Positions 9,893-50,129 of a DNA stretch of 64,000 bases are shown in pieces (the stretch's first letter is position 1; every line of letters starts with the position of its first letter). The DNA is from an uncultured virus (IMG/VR IMGVR_UViG_3300007961_000315) (lineage: Duplodnaviria; Heunggongvirae; Uroviricota; Caudoviricetes): IMG/VR virus record IMGVR_UViG_3300007961_000315; one strand, 5' to 3'. A program made the translations under genes and the position numbers. A model generated the notes under the pieces. It ran no database searches. It was not told the origin of the DNA and was given only the letters and a program-made list of their open reading frames with translations.

Positions 9893-10036
9893 TTGACAAT
9901 TTTTAAATAATACTATATACTGTGGTTACAATGTTTTTTGAACTCTTCGAAGAGTTTGCTTGTTGGCAGCTTCGTCGCTGCTTGAAATGATTTTTTGGCG
10001 CAGTACTCCCATGATGGGCGTACTGCGCCTTTTTTG
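9893..10036 (+). promoter_or_regulatory. Conserved leader copy 1: promoter + two hairpins + terminator
   Basis: TTGACA-17-TATACT; AACTCTTCGAAGAGTT palindrome; GCAGC-TTCGTC-GCTGC; GGCGCAGTAC..GTACTGCGCC-T6; near-identical copies at 57501-57644(-) and 62977-63121(+). Confidence 0.85.
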
Positions 10037-10137
10037 TTTTTTGAGCCGAATTGACAATGATCAGGGAGCTGGACTCCCTGTTTACATAGATATAAATAGC
10101 GAAAGGAGGCAAAAGCCGCAATAGAATCAGGTCTGAT

Positions 10138-10185
10138 GGGGAGCAAAGCTGCGAGAGCTGTTTTGCTCCCCTTTTTATTTTTTTA
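10138..10185 (+). terminator. Second terminator before the first gene of operon A
   Basis: GGGGAGCAAA...TTTGCTCCCC followed by TTTTTATTTTTTT. Confidence 0.7.
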
Positions 10186-10206
10186 TGAGGGAAAGGATGT
10201 ATCAAA

Positions 10207-10584
10207 ATGAAAGCAGCAGAAAACACGATCAATATGCTCGGTGAAAAGATGGAAGTATTTGTCGGCGCAGGATGCTTATCCGAATGCAATTCCTATATAG
10301 CAGCCCGGCTCCCGGCAATCATCTCGAATCTTTGTGAGACTTTATCCAGGCGCCAGGTGGCCCGCACCTTCATGCATCATGTCCGAATTGGAGATACGGT
10401 GGCTCTGATAGACAGAAAAAATGGTTGCTCGTTTCGCCTTAAGATGGAAGCTCATTCCGTTTGCATCATTGGAATTGGTTTTACCGCTGCGCCTCCGGAA
10501 AGTTCCGGCCAGGTATACTATCTTGTCAATTCAAGATTGTGGCAGCGCCACAATGGTCGGAACAGATTGGCGGTGGCTGCATGA
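10207..10584 (+). CDS. Hypothetical protein (ends LAVAA)
   Basis: RBS GAAAGGA; first gene of operon A; ATGA overlap with next gene. Confidence 0.6.
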   Translation: MKAAENTINMLGEKMEVFVGAGCLSECNSYIAARLPAIISNLCETLSRRQVARTFMHHVRIGDTVALIDRKNGCSFRLKMEAHSVCIIGIGFTAAPPESSGQVYYLVNSRLWQRHNGRNRLAVAA

Positions 10585-10955
10585 CGGTTGGCACTGAGGT
10601 TACGGTGAAAGAGACCGTCATCATTGTGGACGGGGGGAATACGAAAACGATTCTCTCCGGTACCAAAGGGCTTCTTAAATGCGTAGGAGCCAATCAAACG
10701 GTGTCGCTCATGATTGGCGATGAAGTATATCCGGATATCCCGATACAGTCGATAGAAGATATGAAAGATGAGGAAGACGAGATGAAAAAAAGGGGCACGT
10801 TGGACTTGTATCTGATTTGCAGCCGGTACCCCGATCAGAAGCCTATCTGTTTCAATTACATGCAGGCGAGAGCGGACGTCTTTTCCTTATGTGAAGAGAT
10901 TCGGCGAAACAGCAAATATATCCAGGAACTGGAAACAAAGCTTGGAAAGCGATAG
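10581..10955 (+). CDS. Hypothetical protein
   Basis: ATGA-coupled to upstream gene. Confidence 0.5.
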   Translation: MTVGTEVTVKETVIIVDGGNTKTILSGTKGLLKCVGANQTVSLMIGDEVYPDIPIQSIEDMKDEEDEMKKRGTLDLYLICSRYPDQKPICFNYMQARADVFSLCEEIRRNSKYIQELETKLGKR

Positions 10956-10971
10956 GAGAAAGGTGAGGAAT

Positions 10972-11499
10972 ATGACAAAAAAAGAACTGATCCATTGGCT
11001 GGATGAGAAAAAACACCATACCATTTCTGAAAAGCAGGAAGAAAACCGGCTGAAAAAGAATGCCATGCTGAAAGAACAGTTGGAACCGCGCGGATTTTAT
11101 GAAATGGCGGAACAGGTCGAATCATGTTTGGAACAGGCATGGAACCTGTGGGAAACGTGGAAAGAGAACGAGGGAAAAGACCTTGTAGAGAATGGACCCC
11201 GGTATCAGAGCTTTGATTCTCAGATGAAGACGTTACTTGGTTCCTGCAAACCTCTTGACGAGCACATGATGAAATATGACATTCAACTGTGCAGCGAATC
11301 CCTTGAGAAACTCAATGAGAGCAGGGGGCTTGTCAGCAAAATTTGCGTATCTTATGACAAGGTAATCAGTAACGTGACTGCGGCGCAGAACACGAAGGAA
11401 GCCATAAATTATGTGCGGGGCCTGGGCTTCGATCTTTCCGAATTAGAAAAACCGGAAAGCGTGGATACCGAATTCCTCTTTGTGAAGCAAGCCGCATGA
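10972..11499 (+). CDS. Hypothetical protein (ends KQAA)
   Basis: RBS AAAGGTGAGG; helical charged composition. Confidence 0.65.
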   Translation: MTKKELIHWLDEKKHHTISEKQEENRLKKNAMLKEQLEPRGFYEMAEQVESCLEQAWNLWETWKENEGKDLVENGPRYQSFDSQMKTLLGSCKPLDEHMMKYDIQLCSESLEKLNESRGLVSKICVSYDKVISNVTAAQNTKEAINYVRGLGFDLSELEKPESVDTEFLFVKQAA

Positions 11500-11541
11500 G
11501 TAGTCGGAATGTTTCGAGTAATGAGAGGATGTGACGCAACG

Positions 11542-12063
11542 ATGCAGCAGATTACACGTAACCAGTTGTTTGAGGAAAAGCTGCCTCTCGTAGACCGGGT
11601 GATGAAACGGTACAGCTGGGAAATCCAAATATACCGATTGTGCCGGGAGGATGTTTGGCAGGAACTGGCCCTTCGAATGTTGGAATGCCTGGATCGGTAT
11701 GACGCAGAGATCTGCCCGAATGTAGACGCCTATCTGGTGAAGCAGCTTCGCTATGCCCTGCTTCACCAGACGGCGCCGAGCAAGCGGTACGGCATCCCAA
11801 ATGCGCCGCGGGGGTGTGTCCTTCAGATCATTTCATTGGAGGAGAACTGCGCCGAAACGTCTTATACGGAGATGCCTGACGACCTGTTTGCAGTACGGGA
11901 AGAAATCCTGGCGCTGCCTCATAGCCAGCGATGTGCCATTCGGCGCGCAGTATATGACGGCAGAATCCGCAGCAGCAACAAGGCTCTGCGGTGCGCCAAG
12001 CTGCACCTCCATAAAAAAGTAAAAGGGTACAATGGAAAACGTTTGAAAAGACAGGGAGCGTGA
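11542..12063 (+). CDS. Sigma-70 region 2-like protein (element-encoded sigma factor/regulator)
   Basis: LFEEKLPLVDRVMKRY..REDVWQELALRMLECLDRYD; region 4 degenerate. Confidence 0.55.
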   Translation: MQQITRNQLFEEKLPLVDRVMKRYSWEIQIYRLCREDVWQELALRMLECLDRYDAEICPNVDAYLVKQLRYALLHQTAPSKRYGIPNAPRGCVLQIISLEENCAETSYTEMPDDLFAVREEILALPHSQRCAIRRAVYDGRIRSSNKALRCAKLHLHKKVKGYNGKRLKRQGA

Positions 12064-13247
12064 TTTCTATCATCAGGCAGAAGTATGAGCCGCTTGTTCT
12101 GGCGGATACTACCCGCCTGACCTTTGCGGAAAGGTTGGAATACCAAAAGTTGGGGATTATGGCCGACGAGCTTCCAACCATTTATCAGAATAATCAGATG
12201 GAAAAGACCGAGTACAATTCTGTGCTCGGCCTTTTTCTGGAAAAAATGTCCCGCAGATCAAAGGCGGAGTTGGATGAGGCGGTGCAGACGCGGTTGAAGA
12301 GGAACGAGAAGCGTGTTCCAATAGAGCCGGAACTGCCTATTTTCGGTGTGAATCGCAGGCCGCTGATCGATGTGGGAGAAGACTTTGAATTGTCGGTTGC
12401 GCACAGCTACACGCTCAAGTGGGTCATAGCGAAATATCTTTCGACCAGGCTGGGTGCCCCGGTTTACAGCCCTTCGCTGCTGCTTCAGCATCCACACCAT
12501 CCATATATGCTGGCGCGGCCGGATTTTGTCGCTGTGTTTCCCGACTCTGATACCGGCGAATTAAACCGGATGGTAAATGTCAAGTGCAAAACCGCGACCC
12601 ATTGGAAGCTGGAAGACCTGAAAGAAGAATTGCCGTTAGAACATGAACTGCATTGCCGGCAGGAGATGGCGGTGGCGAATCTCGATGAAACGATCATCGT
12701 CTACCTCTGCGACAACAACGAAGGGGGGATCGCACTTTACCACCTGGATCGCGATCAAGCGGCCGAGGCAAAAATCATCCAGTGCGTCAAAGCGTTTTGG
12801 CAGGGCAATGTTGAGAAAGAAATTGTACCATTGCCCACAGTGCCATCCAACGCAGCCGACCGGGATATAGCGCTCTATGCTATGTCCCGTAAAAAATACC
12901 ACCGCCCGCCGGACGTCCTTGAGCGGGGAATGCCGGAGTTGTTGGCCGCCTATGCGAAGAAGAAAGAGGCGTATGACAAATGCAATGACACCCTGGAAAG
13001 CTTAAAGGAAGAGGTCAAAGGAATCGAGCTCAAGCTCTCGACCCTGATGCTTGAGAAACCGGAAGGCAGTTGCGGAGACATTAAAATGCGCTGGATTACC
13101 AGAAAGTCCCGCACAGTGGATATGGACGGCCTGGCAGCGGCATATCCGGATATCTATGCGAGATTTGTGACCGAGAACAGTAAACCTGCTTTCGAGGTGC
13201 GCATGAAGAAACCGGCGCCAGGCGCGGAAAAGAAAACAGCGGCTTAA
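12060..13247 (+). CDS. YqaJ-like viral recombinase/exonuclease (ends KTAA)
   Basis: QHPHHPYMLARPDF, VKCKT, HCRQEMAV, FWQGNVEKEIVP; canonical ExK reads KCK. Confidence 0.7.
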   Translation: MISIIRQKYEPLVLADTTRLTFAERLEYQKLGIMADELPTIYQNNQMEKTEYNSVLGLFLEKMSRRSKAELDEAVQTRLKRNEKRVPIEPELPIFGVNRRPLIDVGEDFELSVAHSYTLKWVIAKYLSTRLGAPVYSPSLLLQHPHHPYMLARPDFVAVFPDSDTGELNRMVNVKCKTATHWKLEDLKEELPLEHELHCRQEMAVANLDETIIVYLCDNNEGGIALYHLDRDQAAEAKIIQCVKAFWQGNVEKEIVPLPTVPSNAADRDIALYAMSRKKYHRPPDVLERGMPELLAAYAKKKEAYDKCNDTLESLKEEVKGIELKLSTLMLEKPEGSCGDIKMRWITRKSRTVDMDGLAAAYPDIYARFVTENSKPAFEVRMKKPAPGAEKKTAA

Positions 13248-13271
13248 TGCTGATGAAAGGCGGCAGAAAAT

Positions 13272-13805
13272 TTGAAACTCAATAAAGAAAAGATTACGCG
13301 ATCTGCTTTACGGATTTTAAAGCGGACAAAGCAATATCAAGACTGCAGGGAATCTGGTACTGATGAACAGGATAATTTTCAGTTACAGTACGTTCTGCTT
13401 CAAGGGGATATCGACTCCCCCACGGATGTCCGGGCCTATGCTTATTCGGTAGATACAGAAACCATGCTCTTGTTCCATCCATTAGATGAAGATCCTGATG
13501 TGCGGGAGCTACCGGAATCTGTATTTAATTTCGATGATGCGCTATTCAGTCTGTTGGAATCGGGGTATTCCATTATTGAAATATCCCTGGATTCTCACTG
13601 CGCCATTTTGTCTGATGCGTTGGAAAATGATCCGGAAAAGGAAGAAGGGTTCCTGCGTTATCTGGACTATTGCAGGAAAAACAACGTGCTCGAGGAGGTG
13701 CTGTTTGAAAATCCTCATCTTGCGGAAGAACCAGGGTTAAGGGAGATGTTGTCCCCAAAATATCGACGGGACAGACAAAATGCCAAGACGGAAGGAGCAA
13801 AATGA
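13272..13805 (+). CDS. Hypothetical acidic protein
   Basis: TTG start after GAAAGG; operon position. Confidence 0.55.
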   Translation: MKLNKEKITRSALRILKRTKQYQDCRESGTDEQDNFQLQYVLLQGDIDSPTDVRAYAYSVDTETMLLFHPLDEDPDVRELPESVFNFDDALFSLLESGYSIIEISLDSHCAILSDALENDPEKEEGFLRYLDYCRKNNVLEEVLFENPHLAEEPGLREMLSPKYRRDRQNAKTEGAK

Positions 13806-13806
13806 T

Positions 13807-14094
13807 ATGGGCAAGAAAAAGGAACTGTATCGGGTTGAACGCAGCAATGAAACGCTGGATATCCATTTGGTTGGGGATATCCTTCCCAATACGGTGTTCC
13901 AAAAGGTGATCGAGCTGATGCGTGAGAACCGGGAATGCGAAAACCCTAAAGGGGTGCGTTTTGTAGTTGACAGCAGCGTAATGATGATGGCGGTAAAATA
14001 TGCGATCCCCTCCCAGTTCTATGAAGAAGTGGTATTGGAGGGGCAGTATTCGGCAGATAAGGATGAGGTGCTGAAAGATGCGGCTGGCATGTGA
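13807..14094 (+). CDS. Hypothetical protein
   Basis: RBS AAGGAG; operon position. Confidence 0.55.
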   Translation: MGKKKELYRVERSNETLDIHLVGDILPNTVFQKVIELMRENRECENPKGVRFVVDSSVMMMAVKYAIPSQFYEEVVLEGQYSADKDEVLKDAAGM

Positions 14095-16297
14095 GTATGT
14101 GCAGACACTCTGGCCCAAACCTGGGACGGGGGTGGATTCGGATTTTCGCATCGTGCGCTACCGTCCGCTCCCCGGCGGTAAGATCACCAATGAGTTCACC
14201 GCAAAAGGTGAAGGGCTTCCGGAAAGCAATTTTTTTGAGATTAGCCTGGATGGTGAGCTGAGAACCAGCGATCAGTATGGGAAAACCTTTGTCGTAAAGT
14301 CTTTCTCAACAAAGGTCAAGCAGACCCGGGCCAATGTGCTGGGCTATCTTTCCTCGGGCGCAGTGAAGGGCGTAGGGCCGGCTGTCGCAAAAAAAATCGT
14401 CGATCACTTTGGCGTCGAGGCCCTGGATATTCTGGAGAACGAACCGCAGCGGCTGAAGGAAGTAAGCGGCATCGGAGAAAAAGTCCTGACGGAAATCACC
14501 GACAGCTTTGCGGCAAACAGGGAGATCAACGAGCTCCTGCTCTATGTAGGGCAGTTTTATGCCGCCGCACTGAGCAACGATCCGGACTCCAAATGCCCTA
14601 TCACGCTGAACAGCGCGCGGAAGATTGTTTCCCACTTTGGGGAACGCGCCCTGGAAATCATCCGGTCCGATATCTATCACCTTTGTGAAGTTGACGGATT
14701 CGGCTTCTTGACCGTTGATGCGATGGCGGTGCGGATGCAGCAGCCGATGAATACACTGCCCCGGATCAAAGCGGCGGCGCTGTATATCCTAAAACAGGCG
14801 AAGCAGCAAATGGGCCACCTGTATCTGGAACCGGAAGAATTCCTGCGGGAACTGAAACGCAGCCTGAACCATAAAAAAGCGACCTATCACATTCCGGATT
14901 CAGAGCTGCGCGCTCTCGCAAATGAGGTGCTGCGCACCGAGCAGATCACTTACCAAAACAAATCGATTTATCTTGTGCAGGATTATCAGAATGAAAAATC
15001 CTTCGCAGAAAAAATGGCGGTGCGGCTGTACCAAAACCGGTTCAGCCGCCGGCAGCCGCCTGACGTAATCAAAAATGGAGAAAAGCTGTCGGAAGAACAA
15101 AAGCAGGCCACAATTATGGCGCTCACTCAGAACACCTGTGTGATCACCGGCGGACCTGGTACCGGGAAGACGACCGTGGTGCGTACGATCCTTGAAAACC
15201 TTGTGGGGAATGGCGTGCGGAAGGATGCGCTTCTGCTGTGCGCCCCAACCGGACGGGCTGCCAAGCGGCTTTCCGAGGCGACCGGCTATCCGGCTTACAC
15301 CATTCACAAATCTTTTGGGATTTGGGAAGAGGACGGCGGATATGGGAACGAGACGATTAAGGACCTGGATCTGGTTATTGTTGACGAGGTTTCCATGATG
15401 GATATGGGGCTTGGCACGCAAATGATTTCCCGTATCTCGCCGGAAACCAGATTGATTCTGGTCGGAGACCCGGAGCAGCTGCCCAGCGTGGGGCCCGGTA
15501 ACGTTCTGTGTGAGCTGATCCAATCTGAGGTCGTTCCGGTTGCCCGTTTGAAAACGGTATTCCGGCAGGCTGCGGGGAGCTCCATCGCCGTCAACGCGCA
15601 GCTCATTGTCAGTGCGGAAACCGAATTGGTGTATGATGAAAATTTCGTGTTCATTCCCGCAAAGGACCAGCAGGAAGCGATGTATCTGATCTGTGCCCTC
15701 TATAAACGTGCGGCGGAATCGGTAGGATCTGAAAACGTGCAGATCCTCACGCCGGTGCGCAAAGAAGGGCACCAGTGCGGCGTCAATAACTTAAACACAT
15801 CGATCCAAAGTCTTGTGCAGGACGAGCCGGGGCTGGGATACCACCATTACGGACGTTTCTACTGTCTTGGAGACCCTGTCATACAGAATAAAAATGCAGA
15901 TGACGTTTACAACGGCGAGATCGGCGTTATAACCGGCGTGGAGGACGACAAGATATTTGTCTGCTTTGCGGGTTATGACAAGAATTTGGCTTATGATGAC
16001 GAGAAGATGAACCTTTTGGATTTGGCATATGCGCTCACGGTTCACAAAGCCCAGGGCGCCGAATATCCGATCGTCATTGTGCCGGTGCTGAAAGCGCACA
16101 GCTTCATGCTCAACCGCAACCTGATCTATACAGCCATCACCAGAGGCAAGTCCAGAGTGTTTCTCGTAGGAAGCAAATGGGCGTTGATGAGGGCGATCAA
16201 GAAGGCGGATACCAGCAAGCGCCATACCCATCTGGCCGCCCGCATTCAGGCGGGCCTCAACCGCTTATTGGAAGCTGAAAAGAATGTAGCCGCGTAA
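14078..16297 (+). CDS. recD2: RecD2-like SF1B helicase (ends NVAA)
   Basis: HhH motifs VKGVG/VSGIG, TGGPGTGKTT, APTGRAAKRL, VDEVSM, GDPEQLPSVGPG, AYALTVHKAQG, YTAITRGK. Confidence 0.9.
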   Translation: MRLACEYVQTLWPKPGTGVDSDFRIVRYRPLPGGKITNEFTAKGEGLPESNFFEISLDGELRTSDQYGKTFVVKSFSTKVKQTRANVLGYLSSGAVKGVGPAVAKKIVDHFGVEALDILENEPQRLKEVSGIGEKVLTEITDSFAANREINELLLYVGQFYAAALSNDPDSKCPITLNSARKIVSHFGERALEIIRSDIYHLCEVDGFGFLTVDAMAVRMQQPMNTLPRIKAAALYILKQAKQQMGHLYLEPEEFLRELKRSLNHKKATYHIPDSELRALANEVLRTEQITYQNKSIYLVQDYQNEKSFAEKMAVRLYQNRFSRRQPPDVIKNGEKLSEEQKQATIMALTQNTCVITGGPGTGKTTVVRTILENLVGNGVRKDALLLCAPTGRAAKRLSEATGYPAYTIHKSFGIWEEDGGYGNETIKDLDLVIVDEVSMMDMGLGTQMISRISPETRLILVGDPEQLPSVGPGNVLCELIQSEVVPVARLKTVFRQAAGSSIAVNAQLIVSAETELVYDENFVFIPAKDQQEAMYLICALYKRAAESVGSENVQILTPVRKEGHQCGVNNLNTSIQSLVQDEPGLGYHHYGRFYCLGDPVIQNKNADDVYNGEIGVITGVEDDKIFVCFAGYDKNLAYDDEKMNLLDLAYALTVHKAQGAEYPIVIVPVLKAHSFMLNRNLIYTAITRGKSRVFLVGSKWALMRAIKKADTSKRHTHLAARIQAGLNRLLEAEKNVAA

Positions 16298-16323
16298 AAA
16301 ACGCGCAAGGAAGGAGAAAGTTC

Positions 16324-16677
16324 ATGTTTTCCATGGCGATTCAAGCCGAAGCTTCCGCCTGTCCTGCGGATGGGTGGAGGCCGGCATATACGCATTCCTC
16401 TACCATCTACATGAGGGAATCAAGGCAGGAAGTCGAGATGATTGGCATCTTTGAAAGTTCCAAGGGGGAGTATGGGATAGCACATGGGCGGGTCATGTTC
16501 AACGCGCCTGTTGAAAGCGTATATAAATGCTGCATCGCACAGGATACGTTTGAGCAGGAGCATTACTGGAGGCATTGCCTGCTGCCACAGAGATTTGGAT
16601 CGACTGGCGAGGCATTAAAGCTCTTGCAGCGTCTGATCTGTAAGAAGGAGGAAAACCATTATGAGCATACTGTCTGA
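16324..16677 (+). CDS. Hypothetical protein
   Basis: RBS AAGGAG; operon position. Confidence 0.5.
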   Translation: MFSMAIQAEASACPADGWRPAYTHSSTIYMRESRQEVEMIGIFESSKGEYGIAHGRVMFNAPVESVYKCCIAQDTFEQEHYWRHCLLPQRFGSTGEALKLLQRLICKKEENHYEHTV

Positions 16678-17143
16678 TCTGAAAGTTGTCTGCCCTTTTC
16701 CGCAGGTCTTTGAGGAAGTGGAGGATCCCGGCGCCATAGTTCTCAGCTATCGGAGAAAGATCGGCCATATCCGCGCGGATTATGACGGGTCCAGATGGTG
16801 GAACACCATCTGGCCAATGCATAACGAGCTGGCTTCAACGGAAATCAGCAAGGAAATAGACGCTGTATATGATGCACTGACAGCAAAGGACGCATTGGCG
16901 GATTTGAAGACCTTGCGCGCCTTCTGCGGCCAATTTCCGCAGGCGAAGGCCAGCGCCAACTGTGAGGATGAATACAATTTTTATTATGTGGGAGAGCGCT
17001 GTCTGTACTGGATGCGGTTTATCACACGCAAGGGAGATTACAACCTGTATCTGCATATATTCTTAAAATCTGCGGAGGAAAATAGAGCAGAGGAGAATTT
17101 AGATGGATATATGCGACCAGATGGTGTTCATTCCGGCCAATAG
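16661..17143 (+). CDS. Conserved-looking hypothetical protein of Clostridial mobile elements
   Basis: IGHIRADYDG..WW..W, KGDYNLYL; RBS AAGGAGG. Confidence 0.65.
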   Translation: MSILSDLKVVCPFPQVFEEVEDPGAIVLSYRRKIGHIRADYDGSRWWNTIWPMHNELASTEISKEIDAVYDALTAKDALADLKTLRAFCGQFPQAKASANCEDEYNFYYVGERCLYWMRFITRKGDYNLYLHIFLKSAEENRAEENLDGYMRPDGVHSGQ

Positions 17144-18785
17144 CGAGTATGGCCTGCGCAAGTACAAGGCGTACTACCGCAAAGGTGGGCATCTATTATA
17201 CTGTACACGAAAAGACGAGGAGATCCACGTAGCGGGGCTTCGCAGCGTCTACATCAGCGAATGGCTTCCCCGGATGCTGATCCAAAGAGCCACGCAGCAG
17301 CTGGATGATTATCTGGCCGTCAATCTGCGAGAGTACGAAATGTACCGTTGCGACGGCTTTTGGCAGGATGCTCTGCTGTATGCAGGAAGGCCTATTATAC
17401 CGAAAGCCCCCTATGTGCTGGATACACATGTTGAACAAGGATACGTCACAATCTATGCCGGAGATCGTTATGGGAAGGATCAATCCTGCAGCTGCCGCTA
17501 TGACCTCGTCCGGGAAGAACTGAGCCTCAGATATGACAGTTGGCAGCGGGAAGGCGAGATCCCTCCACAGGACTTCATGGGCTACTTTTTCGATGGCATG
17601 CAGCGGCAGATTCTGGCGCTGCGCCAGCTTGACAGGGGTACCATGCCGGAGCCATACCGCACTACATATTTGGAGATTGCCCGGATCAACGGTTTCTTAA
17701 AAGGAAAACGGACGGTCCGCGCCTGGTTTGACGGCCGGACCAAAGGCATTCTGTGCTACCCGCGCGACGTTCAGACGGCCGCGTTTCTCATCAAGGTGGA
17801 GGATGCAACATTCATCAACCATCTTTACAACTACCGCCACGATGAGGAAGGCAACGAGTTCAAAAAGGGCGAGATCACCACGCTGCCCTATAAGCTCAGC
17901 CACTATTCGGAAGAACTGACGCTTCATAGAGATGCCTTTGCTGCATTCGAGCTGATTTCTGCGGACCCGAGAGTACGCGAAAAGCTGGAACGTGAAGCCA
18001 AAAGGTCAGAAATGAACAGGCTGATTGAAGAAACCGGCGGCGGGGTGTTCTACGAAATTGATTTACTGGTCGGTGGGCATGTCCTTGAGCGGCTGATTAC
18101 TTCGCAGGACTGCGCATCTCTGGAAGAACTTTATGCCTGGCAGCCCGCTGGGGAACGCTTGCTGCAGCTCTATATAGGGCACAGCGGCCGGCTGGAAGTA
18201 CGGGTCATAAAGCACAGTGTCGGTGTGGATGAGAATAGGCCTGTCTCAGATGAGCTGCTGGAAATCATCCGGAAGCTGCCGCACACAAGATGGCATGAAA
18301 TGAAAGGATACAGCCGGGCAGAGGATGACGTCCAATTTACGCAGGATGCTTTGTTTCAATTTTTGGACACGGCTCCAGCGCTTTCGGACAGCGAGAAAAA
18401 CGGGCTGCGAAAGGCAAGGCTGCGATTCCTGATCCCCTCTGACACACAGTACCTGTTCACCGTTTTGGAACTGGATGGGAATCGTTCCTCTGCGGTGGAG
18501 GTGGTTAGCGGGCATCCCCTGGATGGAGCGGAAATCCACCGGCTGGGCTGCGCGGAAAGGTTTGCCATTGGGCATCCGGAGGATAGGATGCTCAATATAC
18601 ACCCTCACTATCTCATCGCTGGGGAAGGCAAAAACGTGCCGTTACCGGATGAGCTGATGGCAATGATCGCAGACGTTGATCCAATGGAGATCCTGCTGGA
18701 AAGGTCGTTTCGCAGCGCACATCCGGAGCATCAAGGATTTTTCTGCTGCCTGGAGAGAAAGGAAAAGGAACCAAGGAAAGGATGA
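17103..18785 (+). CDS. Hypothetical protein (560 aa)
   Basis: RBS AGGAG; long ORF overlapping neighbours. Confidence 0.65.
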   Translation: MDICDQMVFIPANSEYGLRKYKAYYRKGGHLLYCTRKDEEIHVAGLRSVYISEWLPRMLIQRATQQLDDYLAVNLREYEMYRCDGFWQDALLYAGRPIIPKAPYVLDTHVEQGYVTIYAGDRYGKDQSCSCRYDLVREELSLRYDSWQREGEIPPQDFMGYFFDGMQRQILALRQLDRGTMPEPYRTTYLEIARINGFLKGKRTVRAWFDGRTKGILCYPRDVQTAAFLIKVEDATFINHLYNYRHDEEGNEFKKGEITTLPYKLSHYSEELTLHRDAFAAFELISADPRVREKLEREAKRSEMNRLIEETGGGVFYEIDLLVGGHVLERLITSQDCASLEELYAWQPAGERLLQLYIGHSGRLEVRVIKHSVGVDENRPVSDELLEIIRKLPHTRWHEMKGYSRAEDDVQFTQDALFQFLDTAPALSDSEKNGLRKARLRFLIPSDTQYLFTVLELDGNRSSAVEVVSGHPLDGAEIHRLGCAERFAIGHPEDRMLNIHPHYLIAGEGKNVPLPDELMAMIADVDPMEILLERSFRSAHPEHQGFFCCLERKEKEPRKG

Positions 18786-19153
18786 CAACCATGAGAAAGA
18801 TGCAGTTCAAGCGCGGAAAGTTTGGACGAATGAAGATGAAATCCGTCACGAGAGCGCCCAAGACTTTTTTGGAGCTTCTTGAGAGCGGAAAGGAACTGGA
18901 TTGTGAGCTGATTATTGGGGACGTGGACATGCCTGCATCCTTTGTCTGGAATGCGGACAGCCGCATCAGCAGATATGGCATAGAAAAATACCGGACGCTG
19001 ATGGATTCTCCGATTCACCGTCTGCCCAATGGGAATATTGAGCTTTTGTGCCCCGACTGGCAGCTGGGGGAAGAATTCTGCATGGCAGCGGCCGGATACA
19101 TCGGAGATGCTGAGTATCAGCGTATTTTTGAAATGAACGGAGGAGTTTTGTAA
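18782..19153 (+). CDS. Hypothetical protein
   Basis: ATGA overlap; RBS GAAAGG. Confidence 0.6.
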   Translation: MTTMRKMQFKRGKFGRMKMKSVTRAPKTFLELLESGKELDCELIIGDVDMPASFVWNADSRISRYGIEKYRTLMDSPIHRLPNGNIELLCPDWQLGEEFCMAAAGYIGDAEYQRIFEMNGGVL

Positions 19154-19542
19154 TGGGTTCGGGGACAGATGACAGAAGGCAAGTTGCGGAACAGATTTTA
19201 ATGCAATTGGGCGGCAGGGAGTTTTTGCTCATGACAGGGTGTAAAAAGCTTGTGTATGATGAATCCTCTCTGCGGATGCATTTAGCCAGAAATTGCAGCG
19301 GCGCCAATATTCTAAAGATTACCCTGGGTAGCGACGATCTCTATGAGGTCGTCTTTTCGTACCACCGGGCGCCAGGCTATAAGATTAAGGACGGAAAGGT
19401 GTTCGAACGCCCTGAGATCAATCGGGAAGTTGCGCGGTATGAAGGAGTATATGATACGATGCTTCGCCCTATCTTCAGCGAGGTAACGGGGATGGATACC
19501 CACATGCCTCGAATTGAAGGGTTTAACACTCCCGTGCGTTGA
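19153..19542 (+). CDS. Hypothetical phage/ICE-type protein
   Basis: ILMQLGG..F..MTG..DDLYEVVF..GVYDTML; RBS GGAGGAG. Confidence 0.65.
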   Translation: MGSGTDDRRQVAEQILMQLGGREFLLMTGCKKLVYDESSLRMHLARNCSGANILKITLGSDDLYEVVFSYHRAPGYKIKDGKVFERPEINREVARYEGVYDTMLRPIFSEVTGMDTHMPRIEGFNTPVR

Positions 19543-19618
19543 AGCGTGGACAGAGGTTCGGCCGGTTACAGGAAAAGTACGGCATGTAATGTATTGACAT
19601 AAAGTCATAAAAAGATCC

Positions 19619-19661
19619 TGCGCGGGTGTCATGACAAAAAATGACGCCCGCGCACTTTTTT
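19619..19661 (+). terminator. Intra-operon intrinsic terminator
   Basis: TGCGCGGGTGTCAT..ATGACGCCCGCGCA-C-T6. Confidence 0.7.
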
Positions 19662-19677
19662 AGAAAGTGGGAGTGAC

Positions 19678-20238
19678 ATGCTCGCATACAAAGCATTTAA
19701 ACCAGGCCTTGTTTGCCTCGGATATCATTTTGTGATGGGGAAAAACAAAACCGAACAAGCCAATTGCGCACAGAACGGATTCCACTGTGCGGAGAACCCG
19801 TTGGACTGTCTCACATATTACCCGGATATGGAACGGTCGGAGTACTATTTGGTTGACGCCGGCGGAGACCGGGACGAAGATCATGTGGACAGTAAAATTT
19901 CCTGTACGGAGCTTACGATCCTCAAAAAACTGAATCATGAGGAGTTCTTTCTGCACGCGCTGGCCTATATGGCGGATCATCCAAAGCAGAAATGGAATTG
20001 TCATGTTTCTAAAGACTGGGCACAGGCGGCAAACGGTTTTGCGGTCGTCCGGGGGAGTGCCCCTCTCGCCTGTGGGAACCTGAACGATATTCTGGCGATG
20101 GCACAAGAAGACCCGAAATCCGGCGCCATTTTGCAGGTGGCGGTCGCCCGGGTGGACGGTGAGAAGATCCTGCCCGGCAGATGGTATGACATTGATTTAT
20201 CGGAGGTTGAACATGATAAGAAAACAAGAATTGCTTAG
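19678..20238 (+). CDS. Phage/ICE hypothetical protein typically found upstream of PcfJ
   Basis: AYKAF..GLVCLGY.F..G, GFHCAENPLDCLTYY, VDGEKILPGRWY. Confidence 0.7.
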   Translation: MLAYKAFKPGLVCLGYHFVMGKNKTEQANCAQNGFHCAENPLDCLTYYPDMERSEYYLVDAGGDRDEDHVDSKISCTELTILKKLNHEEFFLHALAYMADHPKQKWNCHVSKDWAQAANGFAVVRGSAPLACGNLNDILAMAQEDPKSGAILQVAVARVDGEKILPGRWYDIDLSEVEHDKKTRIA

Positions 20239-22378
20239 TCTCTCTCCACTTTTCGCTACACCGGAAATTCAAAAATTGGCTGAGGACGATCAGCTAATCC
20301 GAAGACAATGCAAATACGGGATATATGAATATGTTGAGCACTGTTATGAACGTAAAATGTACCTGCGGTGTCTGGTTGAGAAGGAAATCCTGAAGGTGGG
20401 CATCTACTTGCCGGACCACTTGAAAACCGGGAGCAATCTTCCGAGCTTTGAGGTGTTCGTCAACAAAAAGGAGAACAGGTTTCTCACCTACGACCGCGCA
20501 AATGACCGATGGCTCAAAGCGAAGCTGGACAGGATCGATTTTCCAGGCTATGTGTATCGTAGCGGGGAGAGATGGATTGAAAAAGCGGACAGCGACGCAG
20601 TTAGGGATTATCTGGGCATAAAGAAAGGCGGGTATGATGGCTTACTTGAATACCAGCGGGGCATTCGGGAAAAGGAACTGATCGCTCGCTACAAAAAAGA
20701 AACCGATCCATGGGATGAGGATATGAAACAGATACCGGCGCTTCCAAAAGACTGGCTGCAGTGGGCAGGCAGGATCGGCATCCCGGAACATTTTATCTAT
20801 TACCACTATAAAAAGCGGGGCGCAAAGGTAGGATACTGTACCCGATGCGGAAAAGAAGTGCCAATCACAAACCCCCGCCACAATAAGAAGGGCCGTTGTC
20901 CCCGCTGCCATCATGAAGTAGTATATAAATCAGTTGGCAGAGCAGGAAGAGTTATTACCCGGCGGTATACTGCATATCTGATACAGCGATGCCGGGATGG
21001 GTTTGTCGTTCGCGAATTTCAGGTGGACCGCACGCATCCCAATGGTGGGAATTACAAAAATGTAGATGTCTACTCCCACGAGATTCGCCGGGTGATCTAT
21101 GACAACCGGCAACAGGTTCGGGCCTACTACTGGGGCTTATATAAACAGCGTGATATGCGATGGATTGCCGGATCTCCGATGAATCTCTCGTGGTATGGAG
21201 ACGATTCCGGGCTGGTATACGGTAAAACCCTGCCGCATTTGGCAAAGAAAGAACTCAAAAGGACGGGACTGAATGAATGGATCCGTCACTATAAAAAGGT
21301 GGACCCGGAGCGGTATCTGCAGACGCTGTACAAAACACCGCAATTGGAGCAGATCACCAAAGCCAACCTTTGGCAGCTTGCGGAAGAGTGTGTAAAACAG
21401 AATTACGACGTCAAACATGAAATCAGTTTTTATTCGAACACCACTTTGACGGGCATACTCGGAATCAATTCCCAGAGCCTCAAAAGGCTGCGCCTGAACA
21501 AAGGCGGATATCGGTTTCTCAGTTGGCTTCAGTATGAGGTGCGATCTGGAAAGCCCATTTCCGACGAGGTGATAAGATGGTTTTGTAAACAGCGGGTTTC
21601 TTCCAGAGAACTCCAGTTTATTTTGGATAGGATGAGTCCTCTTCAAATACGCAACTACCTCACCCGTCAAATGCGGCGAATGAAATGGCATTGCAATGCA
21701 GTCATCAACACCTGGGCGGACTATCTTGCCATGGCCAAGCGGCTGAAGATGAATACAAATGATGAGATCATCTATCGGGTGAACAAGCTGAAAAAGCGCC
21801 ATGACGAACTGGTGAAGATCTGTCAGGAGAGGGCCCCGGAGTTACGGCTGGCGGAGATGAGGGAAAAATATCCGGATGTTGATCCCGTCTGTCGGACACT
21901 GAAAAAGTACGAGTACCGCGGTGAGGCCTATTCGGTGATCGCGCCAAACGGCATGGAGGATATCATTGCCGATGGCGACGCTCTGCACCACTGTACAAGT
22001 ACCCAGGAGCGCTATTGGGAGCGGATCGAAAAGAAGGAAAGCTATATTCTTTTCCTTCGGAGAAGCACTTCTCTGGAAAAGCCGTATTACACGCTGGAGG
22101 TTGAACCTGGAGGTGTAGTCCGCCAAAAACGCACCGAATTTGACCGGCATGACAAGGACATTGATAAGATCGAATTATTCCTGAAAGAATGGCAGGAGGC
22201 TGTCTCCAAGCAAATGACCGGAGATGACCTCCGGTTGGCAGAGGCCAGTCGTGTACTGAGAATGGAGGAATTTGCAGAGCTGCGTGAGAAGCGTGCGATT
22301 ATCCATACCGGAGACCTTGCCGGAAGAAAGCTGGTTGACGTACTGATGGCTGATTTGATGGAAAACAAAGTCGCTTAA
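20213..22378 (+). CDS. PcfJ domain-containing protein
   Basis: WADYLAMA..LKKRHD, DGDALHHC, ILFLRR..PYYTLEV..VRQKR; CxxC zinc motifs. Confidence 0.8.
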   Translation: MIRKQELLSLSPLFATPEIQKLAEDDQLIRRQCKYGIYEYVEHCYERKMYLRCLVEKEILKVGIYLPDHLKTGSNLPSFEVFVNKKENRFLTYDRANDRWLKAKLDRIDFPGYVYRSGERWIEKADSDAVRDYLGIKKGGYDGLLEYQRGIREKELIARYKKETDPWDEDMKQIPALPKDWLQWAGRIGIPEHFIYYHYKKRGAKVGYCTRCGKEVPITNPRHNKKGRCPRCHHEVVYKSVGRAGRVITRRYTAYLIQRCRDGFVVREFQVDRTHPNGGNYKNVDVYSHEIRRVIYDNRQQVRAYYWGLYKQRDMRWIAGSPMNLSWYGDDSGLVYGKTLPHLAKKELKRTGLNEWIRHYKKVDPERYLQTLYKTPQLEQITKANLWQLAEECVKQNYDVKHEISFYSNTTLTGILGINSQSLKRLRLNKGGYRFLSWLQYEVRSGKPISDEVIRWFCKQRVSSRELQFILDRMSPLQIRNYLTRQMRRMKWHCNAVINTWADYLAMAKRLKMNTNDEIIYRVNKLKKRHDELVKICQERAPELRLAEMREKYPDVDPVCRTLKKYEYRGEAYSVIAPNGMEDIIADGDALHHCTSTQERYWERIEKKESYILFLRRSTSLEKPYYTLEVEPGGVVRQKRTEFDRHDKDIDKIELFLKEWQEAVSKQMTGDDLRLAEASRVLRMEEFAELREKRAIIHTGDLAGRKLVDVLMADLMENKVA

Positions 22379-22508
22379 GTCTAAACAGGTGTATACAGCA
22401 AGAGCAAGTAGAAAGCCGAGGGCCCTGAATACGGCTCTGGCTTTCTGCTTGTAAATATGAAGTTTGTGTGCCATAATAAAAACAGTATTCAGAAAGGAGG
22501 TCGTCTCC

Positions 22509-23870
22509 ATGATGTATATTACCGGTGAACGGCTGACATTGCTTCAAACGCCTGCTCAGCCGCGCCGCCAGCTGTCAGAACTGATGGCATATCTCGACGG
22601 CCGTGGTGCCGAGAGCGTCTGCACTCTGTATGGGCTGCGCCGTACCGGGAAAACCACACTGCTGCTTCAAGCGATTCAAAGGCTTGTCACACATGGGATC
22701 CCCGCCGAGCGGATCGGATATTTTACCGGACTCAGAGGCGATGATTTTGATGATCTGTACCTGGAGCTGGAATCGCTCAAGGATACGCTGGATTACATTT
22801 TTATCGATGAGATCGGCTACTTCGCCAATTTTCTTCAGGGTGGCAGCTATCTTTACGACACCCTGGTCCGCCTCTATAACAAAAAGGTTGTGATTGCGGG
22901 AACAAACCTGTTGGCCCTTTATGTATCCGGTAAGCGCACCCTTTATGACCGTTGCCGGATCATCCATGTGCCCTATCTGAGTTTTTATGAGCACTGCCGC
23001 TTTGTGCTGCGGACCGAACAGCCTACCTTTGAGCAGTTCATGCAGTACATGAAAGTCGGCGGACTCTTCAAAGAACCGGAGGACATCCCGGATTATGTGC
23101 AGACCAGCATCACCGATTCCATCGTGGAACTGTTTGAAACACAGCCGGACAGCGAGGTGTTTGTCTGGCTTAAACCAAAGGGAGAGCAGGTGGACTGGAA
23201 GGCCTATGTCAATACTGTCCTTTTCCTCTCCAGCAACTATGTCTCTAACAAAAGCTTCCAGACGCCGGTTTCCTTGATCCAAGACTTTAAAGTGCTGGAT
23301 CGCCAGGTCAGTCGGCAGGTGGCAAAGGACTTTAAGGAGTATTTCAGCCTGAACCGCAATGACCGGGCTTACCGGATGAAACGCACCGAAACGGTGGCAC
23401 TGCTGGACTTTCTGGTGCATTGCGGCGTGATCGTCGTGCTGCCAAACCTGTTCGATGACACCGAGCCGTACAAATGCTATGTGCAGGCGCCGTTCCTTCG
23501 GTTCCACTTTACAGAACGGCTGCGGCAGATGGTAGATGGTACAGTCGTCGATTACCACAAACCGCTGTTCGGCGATCTGCTGGAGGCGGCGGTTGTCAGC
23601 GAATATCAGCAAAGTCACCCCATGGCGGATATCTGGTTTGCGCGGACGCACTGCCCGCCGGGAAGCGACTTTGTCGGCGAGATCGACCTACTGGATTTGG
23701 ATGCCAAAGACGGTTTTGAGGTGAAGCTCACTGATGGCCGCGGCTACCGGGGGTTCCAATTGCTTGGCGAACGGCCGGAGCTGAAGGATTTTCGGTTTGA
23801 GCTGCTGGAAGAGCAGCACTGCATGGAACGGATTTGTCAGTGGGGCAGGCTGTACTACGAAGAAAAGTGA
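22509..23870 (+). CDS. AAA_14-like ATPase with C-terminal PD-(D/E)xK-like region
   Basis: GLRRTGKTT, IFIDEI, EIDLL..FEVK. Confidence 0.75.
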   Translation: MMYITGERLTLLQTPAQPRRQLSELMAYLDGRGAESVCTLYGLRRTGKTTLLLQAIQRLVTHGIPAERIGYFTGLRGDDFDDLYLELESLKDTLDYIFIDEIGYFANFLQGGSYLYDTLVRLYNKKVVIAGTNLLALYVSGKRTLYDRCRIIHVPYLSFYEHCRFVLRTEQPTFEQFMQYMKVGGLFKEPEDIPDYVQTSITDSIVELFETQPDSEVFVWLKPKGEQVDWKAYVNTVLFLSSNYVSNKSFQTPVSLIQDFKVLDRQVSRQVAKDFKEYFSLNRNDRAYRMKRTETVALLDFLVHCGVIVVLPNLFDDTEPYKCYVQAPFLRFHFTERLRQMVDGTVVDYHKPLFGDLLEAAVVSEYQQSHPMADIWFARTHCPPGSDFVGEIDLLDLDAKDGFEVKLTDGRGYRGFQLLGERPELKDFRFELLEEQHCMERICQWGRLYYEEK

Positions 23871-23901
23871 AGAAGCGGTCCGACCAGGATCGTCCAAGAC
23901 G

Positions 23902-23939
23902 GGGCTATCTGAAGCATTTGTGTTTCGGATAGCCCTTTT
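23902..23939 (+). terminator. Intrinsic terminator-like hairpin
   Basis: GGGCTATCTGAAGCA-TTTG-TGTTTCGGATAGCCC-TTTT. Confidence 0.6.
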
Positions 23940-24082
23940 GGCACCCATTTATTTTTTGACGCCAATGACAAGGTGCAAGAGGCTTTGCTGGTGGTCAGAG
24001 ACAAACATATTTTGATGGATAAAAATGAAAGGCGCCTGGATTTATGCCCCTATTGAGCGCTTATCAAGAAAGGAAATCGAAA

Positions 24083-26005
24083 ATGCAACAATTTGATTAT
24101 CTGGGCTTGACCTTTGAGCCATACCGAAATTTAACAGAGGATGAAAGAACCTGTTTTTATGAGTCGATCCAGCATAGTGCATTTTCACCGGAAGGGTTTT
24201 GCCATGAAGACTTTTATGCAGCTGCGACAGCTGCCGATCCGGAAAATGCGGTGGATTTGTTTTACTATGAAGGAGAGGTGGTCCTTCCCTGCAGTTCCTA
24301 TCTCGCCTCTTATCAGGACCCGCAGCGGCCCGCCCACTGCATACGGGAAAAATACCATTCTCTTTCCATGTCAACGATGCTCCAGATCATAGAGGATGTA
24401 GGGATCAACGGATTTTTCCCCACACCGGATGATCTTGCGGCAGAAATGCTCAGCGGTGTTAACTGGGATGAGGTGGAAAGCGTTCTGGAACCGTCCGCCG
24501 GCAAAGGAGATCTGGCAAACAATATTGTCTCCTGGTATCAGAGTGCAATGAGTAGTTACCGGGCACGTTTGGATTTGGATTGCGTGGAAATCAATCCAGA
24601 CCTGCGGGCAATTTTGAAAAGCCGGGGCTATCGCGTGATACACGATGATTTTCTCACACTGCATACCCATAAACGGTATCAGCTCATCGTGATGAACCCG
24701 CCCTTTGCCGAGGGGGATCGTCATCTGATGAAAGCGATGGAGATGGTTCAAAACGGCGGCCAGGTAGTCTGCCTGCTCAATGCACAGACGCTGCGCAATC
24801 CAAACACCAATCTGCGCAAGCTCCTTTTGCAAACCTTGGAAAAACAGGATGCCGTTGTCACCTATTTTGATGGGGCGTTCAGCGGCGCGGAACGAAAGTC
24901 CGATGTGGAGGTAGCCATGGTCCAGGTCACCTTTCCACCCAAAGCGGAAAAGAGTGATCTCTACGAGCACTTGAAGAAGACGGTTGCAGAGGAAGATCAG
25001 GTGCAGGAACCGAACGCCCTGGCCCCATCGGATTTTATTGAGGGTATGATCCGTCAGTTCGAGGTGGAGGTGCGTTCCGGCTTGGAGATTATTCGGCTCT
25101 ATAATGGGCTCCGGCCTTATATCTTGCAGAACATCAATTCGGAAGCGCGTTTCAGCTCCCCAATTTTAACGCTGAATATCGGAAATGATGAGTGTACAGT
25201 CAATGGGTACTTGGTGGCCACCAGAGAAAAATATTGGCGTGCATTGCTTCAGAAACGTGAATTTACCGACCTGCTCACCAAGGACCTCTATACAAAATAT
25301 CAGGAGATGGTGGATCAGCTGAAATTTTATGATTTTTCAAAGTTCAATATTCATCGGGTGTTCACGGAGATGCGCTCAGAGGTCCCCGCAGGACTTCGAG
25401 AAACGATCCTAAAGGTCTTTGATCGGCTGAGCGCGCAGCACGCCTGGTATCCGGAATGCAGCGGCAATATTCACTATTACAATGGATGGGCTACCAACAA
25501 GGCGCACAAGATCAATAAAAAGGTGATCATCCCCTCCCATGGAATTTTCCCGGATTGGGAGTGGAGCAAGGATGCATTCCAAGTCTATGAGGCCCACAAA
25601 CATCTGGAGGACATCGAAAAAATCCTCAACTATCTGGATGGGTGTATGACCGCCGAAGTGGACCTTCATTTCATACTGGAACGGGCGAACCATGAGGGAC
25701 AAACCAAAAAAATTCACTGCAAATATTTCGATGTTACCTTTTACAAAAAGGGCACGACACACATCATGTTCCATGACCAGCGGATTGTGGATGCGCTGAA
25801 TATCTACGCCGCCCGCAACCGCAACTGGCTGCCGCCTTCCTACGGTAAATCCCATTATCAGGATATGGGACCGGAAGAACAGAAGGTCATCGACGAGTTT
25901 CAGGGCGAAGAGGCGTATGATCAGGTGTTAGCGCACCCGGATATCTACCTGTCTGGTCGCATCGTGCTGGCACTGCCGGGATGGCCTATAGAACAAGCGG
26001 GATAA
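24083..26005 (+). CDS. Adenine DNA methyltransferase with DUF4942 domain
   Basis: FFPTP, VLEPSAGKG, MNPPF; C-terminal YFDVTFYKKGTTHI and NWLPPSYG. Confidence 0.85.
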   Translation: MQQFDYLGLTFEPYRNLTEDERTCFYESIQHSAFSPEGFCHEDFYAAATAADPENAVDLFYYEGEVVLPCSSYLASYQDPQRPAHCIREKYHSLSMSTMLQIIEDVGINGFFPTPDDLAAEMLSGVNWDEVESVLEPSAGKGDLANNIVSWYQSAMSSYRARLDLDCVEINPDLRAILKSRGYRVIHDDFLTLHTHKRYQLIVMNPPFAEGDRHLMKAMEMVQNGGQVVCLLNAQTLRNPNTNLRKLLLQTLEKQDAVVTYFDGAFSGAERKSDVEVAMVQVTFPPKAEKSDLYEHLKKTVAEEDQVQEPNALAPSDFIEGMIRQFEVEVRSGLEIIRLYNGLRPYILQNINSEARFSSPILTLNIGNDECTVNGYLVATREKYWRALLQKREFTDLLTKDLYTKYQEMVDQLKFYDFSKFNIHRVFTEMRSEVPAGLRETILKVFDRLSAQHAWYPECSGNIHYYNGWATNKAHKINKKVIIPSHGIFPDWEWSKDAFQVYEAHKHLEDIEKILNYLDGCMTAEVDLHFILERANHEGQTKKIHCKYFDVTFYKKGTTHIMFHDQRIVDALNIYAARNRNWLPPSYGKSHYQDMGPEEQKVIDEFQGEEAYDQVLAHPDIYLSGRIVLALPGWPIEQAG

Positions 26006-49459: not shown

Positions 49460-50086
49460 TCAGCCAGCTAACATCTCTTTCTCGGTGGTGGTTCTATAGA
49501 CGACGCCATAGCGAGTCGTTCTTACTATGATTTTACCCTGGTGAACCAATCCGGTAAAGATCTCCCGTACCACTTCATTTCCCGGCGGGAAGGGAGAATT
49601 TTTGCAGTCAATTAGATTCAGTGAATACTTTTCTGAAACCGAGGAAAGCTCCTTTCTGCCGTCCGTATACAGATTTCTGCGCGAAGTGCGGAATGCCTCC
49701 AGAAGATCAGATGCAATCTGATCCCGCTGACTCGCCAAATCTTTTAAATGCTCTTCCAAGGGCATATCTACGTAAATCTTGTAGAAATCCACGCGGTAGC
49801 AGGAAAAAGTTTGGGCTGTCATCAGAAGAGAATGGATTGCTTCAATATTTTCTTCCAACACCACCCCGCTGAATTCCTGCGGATGCAGGTAAAGTTCTTC
49901 TTTTCCGCGAGTGACAGTGTCGGCGGCGCCGAAAATCGTATGAGGCACTAATGTCCAGCCGTCATCCAAAAAAAGCTGAGAAGATTCTTTCTGGAAGGCA
50001 TCCTTTTTTTCTGAGGACAAATATCCGGAATAGGGGCAGTAAGCAGGGCACTCAATCCGGTAATAGACTTTGATGTATTTCTTGAT
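49460..50086 (-). CDS. Hypothetical protein; start uncertain (ATC after a perfect RBS)
   Basis: AAGGAGG then ATC AAG AAA TAC; EELYLHPQEFSG motif; may have a mutated or non-canonical start. Confidence 0.55.
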   Translation of the reverse strand: MKKYIKVYYRIECPAYCPYSGYLSSEKKDAFQKESSQLFLDDGWTLVPHTIFGAADTVTRGKEELYLHPQEFSGVVLEENIEAIHSLLMTAQTFSCYRVDFYKIYVDMPLEEHLKDLASQRDQIASDLLEAFRTSRRNLYTDGRKELSSVSEKYSLNLIDCKNSPFPPGNEVVREIFTGLVHQGKIIVRTTRYGVVYRTTTEKEMLAG

Positions 50087-50129
50087 GATTCTTCCTCCTT
50101 CGTGAATATAGTTCGGATGTTCCTCACTG

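Follow-up and report, generated by a model that had tools for sequence, protein, structure and literature searches.

On the Bacillus pumilus plasmid p576, the sequence EGeRS2 is described as giving common control of an establishment regulon, Reg576 (PMC6294495, PMC8708921), in which four promoters answer to one repressor (PMC6294495). EGeRS1, found in the pLS20 family and on the Bacillus plasmid pBS72, is presented as a GC-rich, highly structured element of 420-750 bp that has no constitutive sigma-A promoter and blocks read-through in its native orientation; on pBS72 four EGeRS1 sequences are reported before putative operons (PMC8708921). The CUP repeats of IncN plasmids (the ArdK regulon) are described as tying anti-restriction genes of the leading region to one regulator (PMC6289460).

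The window analysed here, a stretch of 64,000 nt, holds three near-identical copies (A, B and C) of a unit of about 150 bases that falls into the same functional class as EGeRS1, EGeRS2 and CUP, a multi-copy sequence directly upstream of anti-restriction operons in three of three cases. All three copies are intergenic, and each sits immediately in front of an operon and faces it; that each heads an operon had been stated in the original prediction. With EGeRS2 the cassette shares the design of a short repeated sequence with a strong sigma-A promoter heading operons that include ardC. It differs by the intrinsic terminator that follows the promoter, whereas EGeRS2 has dual TTATCCC heptamers and a ribbon-helix-helix repressor; the dual heptamer has two chance-level matches in the window (659 and 51105; up to 2 mismatches), neither near a copy. 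EGeRS1 is likewise a multi-copy leader before putative establishment operons, but the cassette is only 150 bp long, has a near-consensus promoter and shows no sequence similarity to it: a pLS20-type EGeRS1 would have more than 60% identity, and blastn gives no match in PLSDB, which includes pBS72. CUP, for whose control of such genes PMC6289460 cites Delver and Belogurov (1997), is by contrast a protein-binding DNA element of enterobacterial plasmids, has no terminator and yields no sequence match in PLSDB. On the best reading, the cassette is a sequence-unrelated analogue of EGeRS and CUP, and by function a third type beside EGeRS1, EGeRS2 and CUP.

The original prediction had named EGeRS and CUP as analogues and recognised the sequence as neither. 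The second half agrees with the blastn result in PLSDB, and the first gains from pBS72, where a multi-copy leader precedes a homologue of the methylase-helicase encoded behind copy B. Full-length homologues of this protein, 35-39% identical to it, occur on a Vescimonas plasmid as well as on plasmids of Bacillus and Lysinibacillus, with 37% for that of pBS72. In the 17 kb of pBS72 compared, a repeat of at least 300 nt occurs in three copies that are 89-99% identical, each before an operon. We take these repeats to be EGeRS1 because EGeRS1 is reported on this plasmid (PMC8708921), an identification that goes by that report. The methylase-helicase thus stands behind unlike multi-copy leaders, and the same kind of gene is so placed in two unrelated lineages.

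Anatomy and conservation of the three copies

Each copy consists of the promoter TTGACA-17-TATACT, the core with its palindrome and hairpin, and a strong terminator; anatomy, number and dispersed positions of the copies are those of the original prediction. The promoter agrees with the consensus at 11 of 12 positions in all three copies (promoter scan). Its spacers have diverged, again as foreseen, with 3 of 17 bases equal between A and B and 11 of 17 between A and C, yet the hexamers and the constant spacing of 17 nt are kept, which argues that the promoter is maintained. The -35 element of copy A lies within a 10-bp inverted repeat that is absent from copy C, and the DNA fold shows an ordinary duplex-type promoter rather than a single-stranded promoter of the Frpo type. 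Transcription of copy A is predicted to start at about 9928, within a -10-like hexamer (TACAAT in A, TACGAT in B and TACAGT in C) that is possibly a sigma-dependent pause element.

From this start to the U-tract the predicted RNA has about 110 nt, so that the terminated RNA of about 105 nt proposed as the default output is retained as to termination, a sound prediction given the strength of the first terminator (T1), and corrected as to length. The predicted fold of the leader RNA has three independent hairpins (total -42.8 kcal/mol, z-score -5.45), with about 65 nt ahead of T1. The first is formed by the palindrome AACTCTTCGAAGAGTT, which lies at about +14 to +29 (13-28 nt downstream of the predicted start). 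As an RNA hairpin it is weak (-5.1 kcal/mol, with 10 of 200 shuffles folding equally well), and the palindrome is a candidate DNA operator. Hairpin 2 follows, and then T1, with 14 pairs and one mismatch, a 3-nt loop and a U-tract (-24.7 to -25.2 kcal/mol across the copies). A second terminator is present in A and B and absent from C; that of copy A (T2) stops roughly 18 nt short of the first gene's start codon, right ahead of the ribosome-binding site. In none of the copies does the promoter scan place a sigma-70-like promoter between T1 and the first gene. Every copy also contains a weak promoter-like site, TTGGCA-17-AATGAT, which was set aside because its transcript would start at the terminator.

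Table 1. Positions of the cassette parts, of the operons behind them and of the repeats of pBS72. Strand-minus features of copy B are given from their 5' end where the higher number stands first.
Feature	Position	Strand	Remarks
Copy A	9893-10042	+	promoter to U-tract
Promoter, copy A	9893..9921	+	TTGACA 9893-9898, 17-nt spacer, TATACT 9916-9921
-10-like hexamer TACAAT, copy A	9927..9932	+	around predicted start
Palindrome AACTCTTCGAAGAGTT, copy A	9941..9956	+	perfect, 16 bp
Hairpin 2, GGCAGC-UUCGUC-GCUGCU, copy A	9965..9982	+	-8.6 kcal/mol (predicted)
T1, copy A	9997..10042	+	stem 9997-10029, -25.2 kcal/mol, then TTTTTTGTTTTTT
T2, second terminator-like hairpin, copy A	10138..10188	+	hairpin 10138-10171, -25.7 kcal/mol, T-run
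Operon A	10207..26005	+	ORF and family matches
Internal terminator, operon A	19619..19664	+	14-bp stem, -27.5 kcal/mol
Copy B	57644-57498	-	promoter to U-tract
Promoter, copy B	-35 57644-57639, -10 57621-57616	-	promoter scan
Palindrome, copy B	57596-57581	-	pattern match
Hairpin 2, copy B	57572-57555	-	pattern match
T1 stem, copy B	57539-57507	-	then U-tract
Second terminator-like hairpin, copy B	57441..57470	-	-16.1 kcal/mol, then TTTTTG
Operon B	49460..57403	-	11 tightly packed genes
Copy C	62977-63121	+	promoter to U-tract
Promoter, copy C	-35 62977-62982, -10 63000-63005	+	promoter scan
Palindrome, copy C	63025-63040	+	pattern match
Hairpin 2, copy C	63049-63066	+	pattern match
T1 stem, copy C	63082-63114	+	then U-tract
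First gene, operon C	63235..64000	+	open at window end, at least 255 aa, no family match
Repeats of pBS72 (locus L049)	3067-3403, 5239-5575, 11443-11779		one operon holds the methylase-helicase homologue

Alignment of the transcribed parts of A, B and C (120 columns) gives an invariant run over columns 11-71, and these 61 nt correspond to the invariant core of about 60 nt noted originally. Over columns 11-107, where 107 is the end of the terminator stem, four columns vary, one in the U-rich linker and three in the 33-column terminator hairpin. All three are among its five unpaired columns (three in the loop, two in the mismatch), an outcome with a chance of 10/5456 = 0.002 (hypergeometric); that terminator variation is confined to loop and mismatch positions had been claimed beforehand and is what the alignment gives. 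A 42-nt core has three exact matches in the window against 0 expected from 100 shuffles. No fourth copy is found in the window by a covariance model built from the three copies and run with filters off, and neither the AACTCTTCGAAGAGTT palindrome nor the hairpin GGCAGC-TTCGTC-GCTGCT recurs in the window outside the copies at up to 3 mismatches. The bounds of the cassette are exact, from the -35 element to the U-tract, with unrelated flanks, and a 121-nt stretch of copy B recurs inverted in copy C, at a distance of 5.4 kb. The cassette is conserved far beyond its surroundings, because neighbour genes of the same families at different copies are only 24-26% identical (short local alignments). 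Against selection on the cassette it can be said that identity within one genome could reflect recent duplication or gene conversion.

Operons and surroundings

Operon A encodes a 125-aa ORF, a sigma70_r2-like protein, a YqaJ/RecE-like exonuclease and a RecD2 helicase, and further a DUF7666 protein, PcfJ, an AAA_14 ATPase and a DUF4942 methylase; its internal terminator lies directly before a ribosome-binding site, 14 nt ahead of the next start codon (19678). Operon B encodes a 57-aa basic protein (57403-57230), a DUF4313 protein, a zinc-ribbon protein and an ArdC-N-like protein, together with the N6-methylase-helicase of 1029 aa and a 226-aa ORF. The YqaJ, RecD2, PcfJ, methyltransferase and ArdC-like genes named in the original prediction are all there, a content of the anti-restriction or establishment type. 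The basic N-terminus of the 57-aa protein recalls an arginine-rich RNA-binding motif. The protein has only three relatives (77-81% identity), among which residue 11 varies as R, K or Q, and its fold model is poor (pLDDT 58.9).

Positions 1-6474 carry ordinary chromosomal genes (two M23 peptidases, a CtpB-like protease, GreA and LysS), and the window beyond is mosaic mobile DNA with a DnaD-like initiator, an excisionase-like HTH protein, an integrase fragment and an IS200/IS605 element. Candidate defence genes stand beside the anti-restriction operons, at 8232-9065, 29679-30608, 35929-37306, 57780-58949 and 61565-62914. They comprise a PDC-M03A-like protein, PDC-S04/SoFic-like Fic proteins, a PDC-S01 ATPase (E = 4e-153) and a small RelA/SpoT-like synthetase adjoining a Panacea-domain protein. 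Since they adjoin these operons, defence and counter-defence lie on one mobile DNA. A perfect consensus promoter, TTGACA-17-TATAAT (8194-8222), is contained in the final part of a 72-aa ORF and lies shortly ahead of the PDC-M03A-like or HipA_C-like gene (8232-9065).

The mobile part holds other repeats. A second repeated leader, unrelated to the cassette, precedes two large surface-protein genes (26290-26760 and 44306-44740), whose products have 975 aa (DUF6273 and Big_3/4 domains) and 1392 aa (Big_2 domain). It consists of a promoter TTGACA-16-CATAAT, perfect tandem CACTGGG heptamers in 14.1 and 8.3 copies, a terminator hairpin that uses the last repeat unit as its 5' arm, and a conserved GC-rich hairpin, followed by the signal peptide; this second leader is a candidate site of slipped-strand phase variation or of leader control. 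With two surface-protein genes that have a promoter-leader-terminator module of their own, promoter-proximal termination recurs on the element. Three direct repeats of CGGAATAATAT with the look of operators (30613-30670) are placed between a divergent Fic/HTH gene (29679-30608, minus strand) and the integrase fragment (30648-31574), of which only the C-terminal catalytic part matches. The gene of the DnaD-like initiator (7374-7520) contains 28-mers at 7374 and 7425 and a 15-mer repeated 2.7 times at 7481-7520, and the 11-mer ATTTTATCATT is repeated 3.8 times at 61273-61315, upstream of the PDC-S01 ATPase gene; both sets are possibly iterons or operators. Three related 38-nt sequences (37668-37705, 59109-59146 and 60820-60857) were also noted. 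Two of them flank the tnpA-tnpB pair of the IS200/IS605 element (59236-60750), and the isolated third one, near 37.7 kb, could be a remnant or a solo end.

Proposed default termination and its relief

The reading that we prefer, at a probability of about one half, is that the cassette is a shared cis-regulatory head at which transcription terminates by default and is released by a trans-acting factor on the leader. It would head three operons of anti-restriction, DNA modification and recombination, on what is probably integrated mobile DNA of a gut Clostridia bacterium. The near-consensus sigma-A promoter would fire, and the polymerase would make the leader of about 65 nt, palindrome first and then hairpin 2. 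It would then stop at the long-stemmed T1, to leave the RNA of about 110 nt and a silent operon, with a second terminator added in A and B. The operons would be expressed only once the factor, whose existence we infer, acts on the invariant leader. Strong terminators, in places doubled, with no space left for a further sigma-70 promoter, are our grounds for reading the default as off. No antiterminator fold common to the three copies was found, so release should need a factor. Factor-dependent antitermination, with the logic of lambda PR'/Q/tR' or N/nut, would be its most likely form; the tandem and internal terminators and the modules of the surface genes fit such a mechanism. A repressor on the palindrome may act too, as the perfect palindrome, weak as RNA and operator-like, fits repression of the kind described for p576 (PMC6294495). 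Release might come, for example, after transfer to a new host. Because the window has no relaxase or T4SS genes, this timing, which the original prediction had also offered, is conjectural and unanchored.

Several observations speak against the preferred reading. The leader folds into independent hairpins, with an alternative fold only in truncated copy A. The T1 stem belongs to the class for which resistance to conAn antitermination is reported (stems of at least 14 bp; PMC10325885). Antiterminator-type proteins (ConAn1, PF17362; Q; NusG-like; ANTAR) are found neither in 60 distinct ORFs at E <= 0.001 nor, at E <= 0.1, in 18 ORFs (17 of that set and the 57-aa ORF), and Pfam and PHROG give no Q or antiterminator family match among the ORFs scanned; a protein unrelated to these families could nevertheless fill the role of Q. 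The interpretation in the original prediction is thus supported in part: the regulon and default termination stay plausible, and the switch itself is a conjecture, for which neither an antiterminator fold common to the copies nor a regulator was found. The antisense factor offered there as one possible agent finds no support, as no antisense or trans target stands out in the target search.

The nearest logic for such a head is that of late control in phage lambda. PR' is a constitutive strong promoter from which a short RNA, 6S, is terminated by default at tR', and Q-modified polymerase reads the operon. The cassette resembles this PR'/qut/6S/tR'/Q arrangement in the predicted default short RNA and in the -10-like hexamer at the transcript start; its Q-type features (promoter, T1 and early -10-like hexamer) are predicted from sequence. 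Lambda Q binds in the promoter spacer, whereas here the spacer is unconserved in copy B and no Q-family protein is found among the ORFs scanned; in addition, three operon heads take the place of one, on mobile DNA of a Gram-positive bacterium. A full PR'/Q-like switch outside phages, in which one factor of the element, at the palindrome or hairpin, would make the polymerase terminator-proof for the three operons together, through the second and internal terminators as well, is doubtful in our judgement. If true, it would be the first multi-operon antitermination regulon for establishment genes. In a bolder variant of this reading, the 110-nt RNA, which would be abundant, would itself serve as an anti-defence decoy.

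Other leaders share parts of this architecture. The put RNAs of phage HK022 form two small hairpins just after the promoter, an arrangement duplicated where divergent operons begin and followed by terminators, and the cassette is likened to put and to lambda nut by its architecture. Put acts constitutively. An ANTAR target has two hexaloop hairpins, the second overlapping the terminator; in the cassette hairpin 2 ends 14-15 nt before T1, and no ANTAR domain is found among the ORFs scanned. Put and EAR are also named in the discussion of PMC8191782. Like conAn, canT and cATT of Gram-positive conjugative elements, the cassette would exert leader-based control of termination (PMC8191782, PMC11658703, PMC13401043). 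The conAn system, of pLS20 and others, is bipartite, with a ConAn1 protein (PF17362) followed by the conAn2 RNA region. The leaders of conAn and canT are reported as longer and single, with 260-600 nt for conAn2 and 341-452 nt for canT (Tn916), each once at a conjugation operon (PMC8191782, PMC11658703), against about 65 nt before T1 here, where ConAn1 is not found among the ORFs scanned. Judged on sequence, the cassette is not a member of any named family compared.

Control centred on an operator, in the style of EGeRS2 or CUP, is compatible with the preferred reading and may act together with it; as the explanation in its own right it is a tentative possibility. The palindrome would be the operator of a dimeric repressor encoded by the element, which shuts the promoters when resident and lets them fire briefly in a repressor-free cell, while the terminator only damps or insulates. 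Perfect symmetry over 16 bp including a self-complementary centre, the weak RNA hairpin, a usual place for a repressor downstream of the start, confinement within the window to the three cassettes and the precedent reported for p576 (PMC6294495) are all in line with this. It leaves hairpin 2, the invariant linker and the strong T1 and T2 unexplained, however, and no repressor is found: there is no ribbon-helix-helix family match among the ORFs scanned and no extra operator before a regulator gene, and the dual heptamer of Reg576 is absent near the copies.

The main rival, and a serious one, is a free-standing small-RNA gene present three times, which we consider unlikely. The RNA of about 110 nt would act in trans, for example as a regulator or anti-defence decoy, and the terminator would insulate operons driven by other promoters, for example through the sigma-like protein of the element. 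A self-contained promoter-to-terminator unit with a near-consensus promoter, a very strong, long-stemmed T1 and a low fold z-score is what such a gene would look like, and the sigma70_r2-like protein of operon A has a parallel in the related Vescimonas plasmid, which annotates two sigma factors in the homologous region. The position of every copy, directly upstream of an operon and pointing into it, argues against it, and in copy A T2 comes too close to the ribosome-binding site for a promoter to fit between them. Nor does a target emerge: the best score for a duplex with any of 53 translation-start regions, -37.1, falls inside the null distribution (mean -34.5, sd 3.0), reverse-complement matches of at least 12 nt are only chance-level or U-tract, and no Rfam family matches, CRISPR-repeat families included.

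A structure-switching attenuator with an internal antiterminator, whether riboswitch, zipper or leader peptide, is very improbable. In truncated copy A a terminator-sequestering fold is the minimum-energy one (-17.5 versus -15.0 kcal/mol): the 3' half of the palindrome pairs with the U-linker and the start of T1 and encloses hairpin 2, which recalls cATT, the zipper-type attenuator reported on pLS20 (PMC13401043). In the zipper type a weak upstream stem-loop is complementary to the terminator, and the central stem is thereby extended into an antiterminator. In the cassette the complementarity is not common to the three copies. The fold is unfavoured in B and C, the sole variable leader position lies within its helix and half of its pairs are G-U; Rfam gives no riboswitch. 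The leader of copy A contains a reading frame of 19 codons, and a leader peptide was rejected because its start is unconserved (ATG in A, ATA in B and GTG in C) and no Shine-Dalgarno sequence precedes it. Scarcely credible is a selfish or neutral repeat (MITE-like or a recombination site) of no regulatory role: near-identical copies with unrelated flanks and the inverted repeat of B and C might suggest one, but terminal inverted repeats and target duplications are missing from the copy ends, each repeat is a whole transcription unit that lies between genes and is directed at an operon, and the promoter hexamers are kept despite spacer divergence.

Distribution and meaning

The cassette is without a known RNA family: the Rfam search proposed with the original prediction gives no match at gathering score in the whole window, and the eight matches at E <= 10 in 9850-10220 are all far below gathering score and mostly on terminators, with no riboswitch and no CRISPR-repeat family. 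Neither PLSDB nor INPHARED has a match to the cassette (blastn). The 34 pattern loci in GTDB species genomes were judged chance by organism and context (one locus inspected), and the single locus in JGI metagenomes is a chance match within GC-rich coding sequence. IMG/VR gives no match to three DNA patterns, and no relatives in protein searches with the DUF4313 protein, the 125-aa ORF and the 57-aa protein alignment. On Vescimonas and Subdoligranulum plasmids the covariance model of the cassette detects generic terminators only; the Vescimonas plasmid has its own single-copy promoter-leader before ssb, unrelated to the cassette.

Most public sequencing runs that contain the stretch bear the label pig gut metagenome, and one run each is labelled stomach and bovine gut. 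At least part of it is present in 20 of the 22 run rows listed (16 studies), at least 0.93 of the sampled words in four, and no RNA run is among the public runs listed. In four runs that contain part of the stretch we find two further family members in other contexts, each on one single low-depth contig. The pig-gut contig of run X5 has a diverged copy with 6 differences in 62 nt of the core and, at the position of the usual -10, a TATAAT of its own. The visible part of its terminator has five changes, of which two turn Watson-Crick pairs into G-U (plus sense), one opens the loop-closing pair and two fall on unpaired positions. The contig of run X7 has the terminator with a downstream flank unlike that of all three window copies.

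How anti-restriction and establishment genes are timed is understood for very few mobile elements of Gram-positive bacteria, namely p576 and, to some extent, pLS20, and in the literature searched we found no example of such control from gut Clostridia. These bacteria carry much of the gut's mobile DNA. A constitutive-looking promoter combined with a long-stem terminator is a design that goes unreported in the EGeRS and CUP descriptions compared. The cassette is short, modular and sharply bounded, and so should be easy to test with reporters. We regard it as of moderate interest, a clean, testable module from a poorly studied group with a narrow known distribution. It marks a regulon of mostly unknown genes that adjoin known anti-restriction genes, and for this reason the unknown ones are candidates for anti-defence functions.
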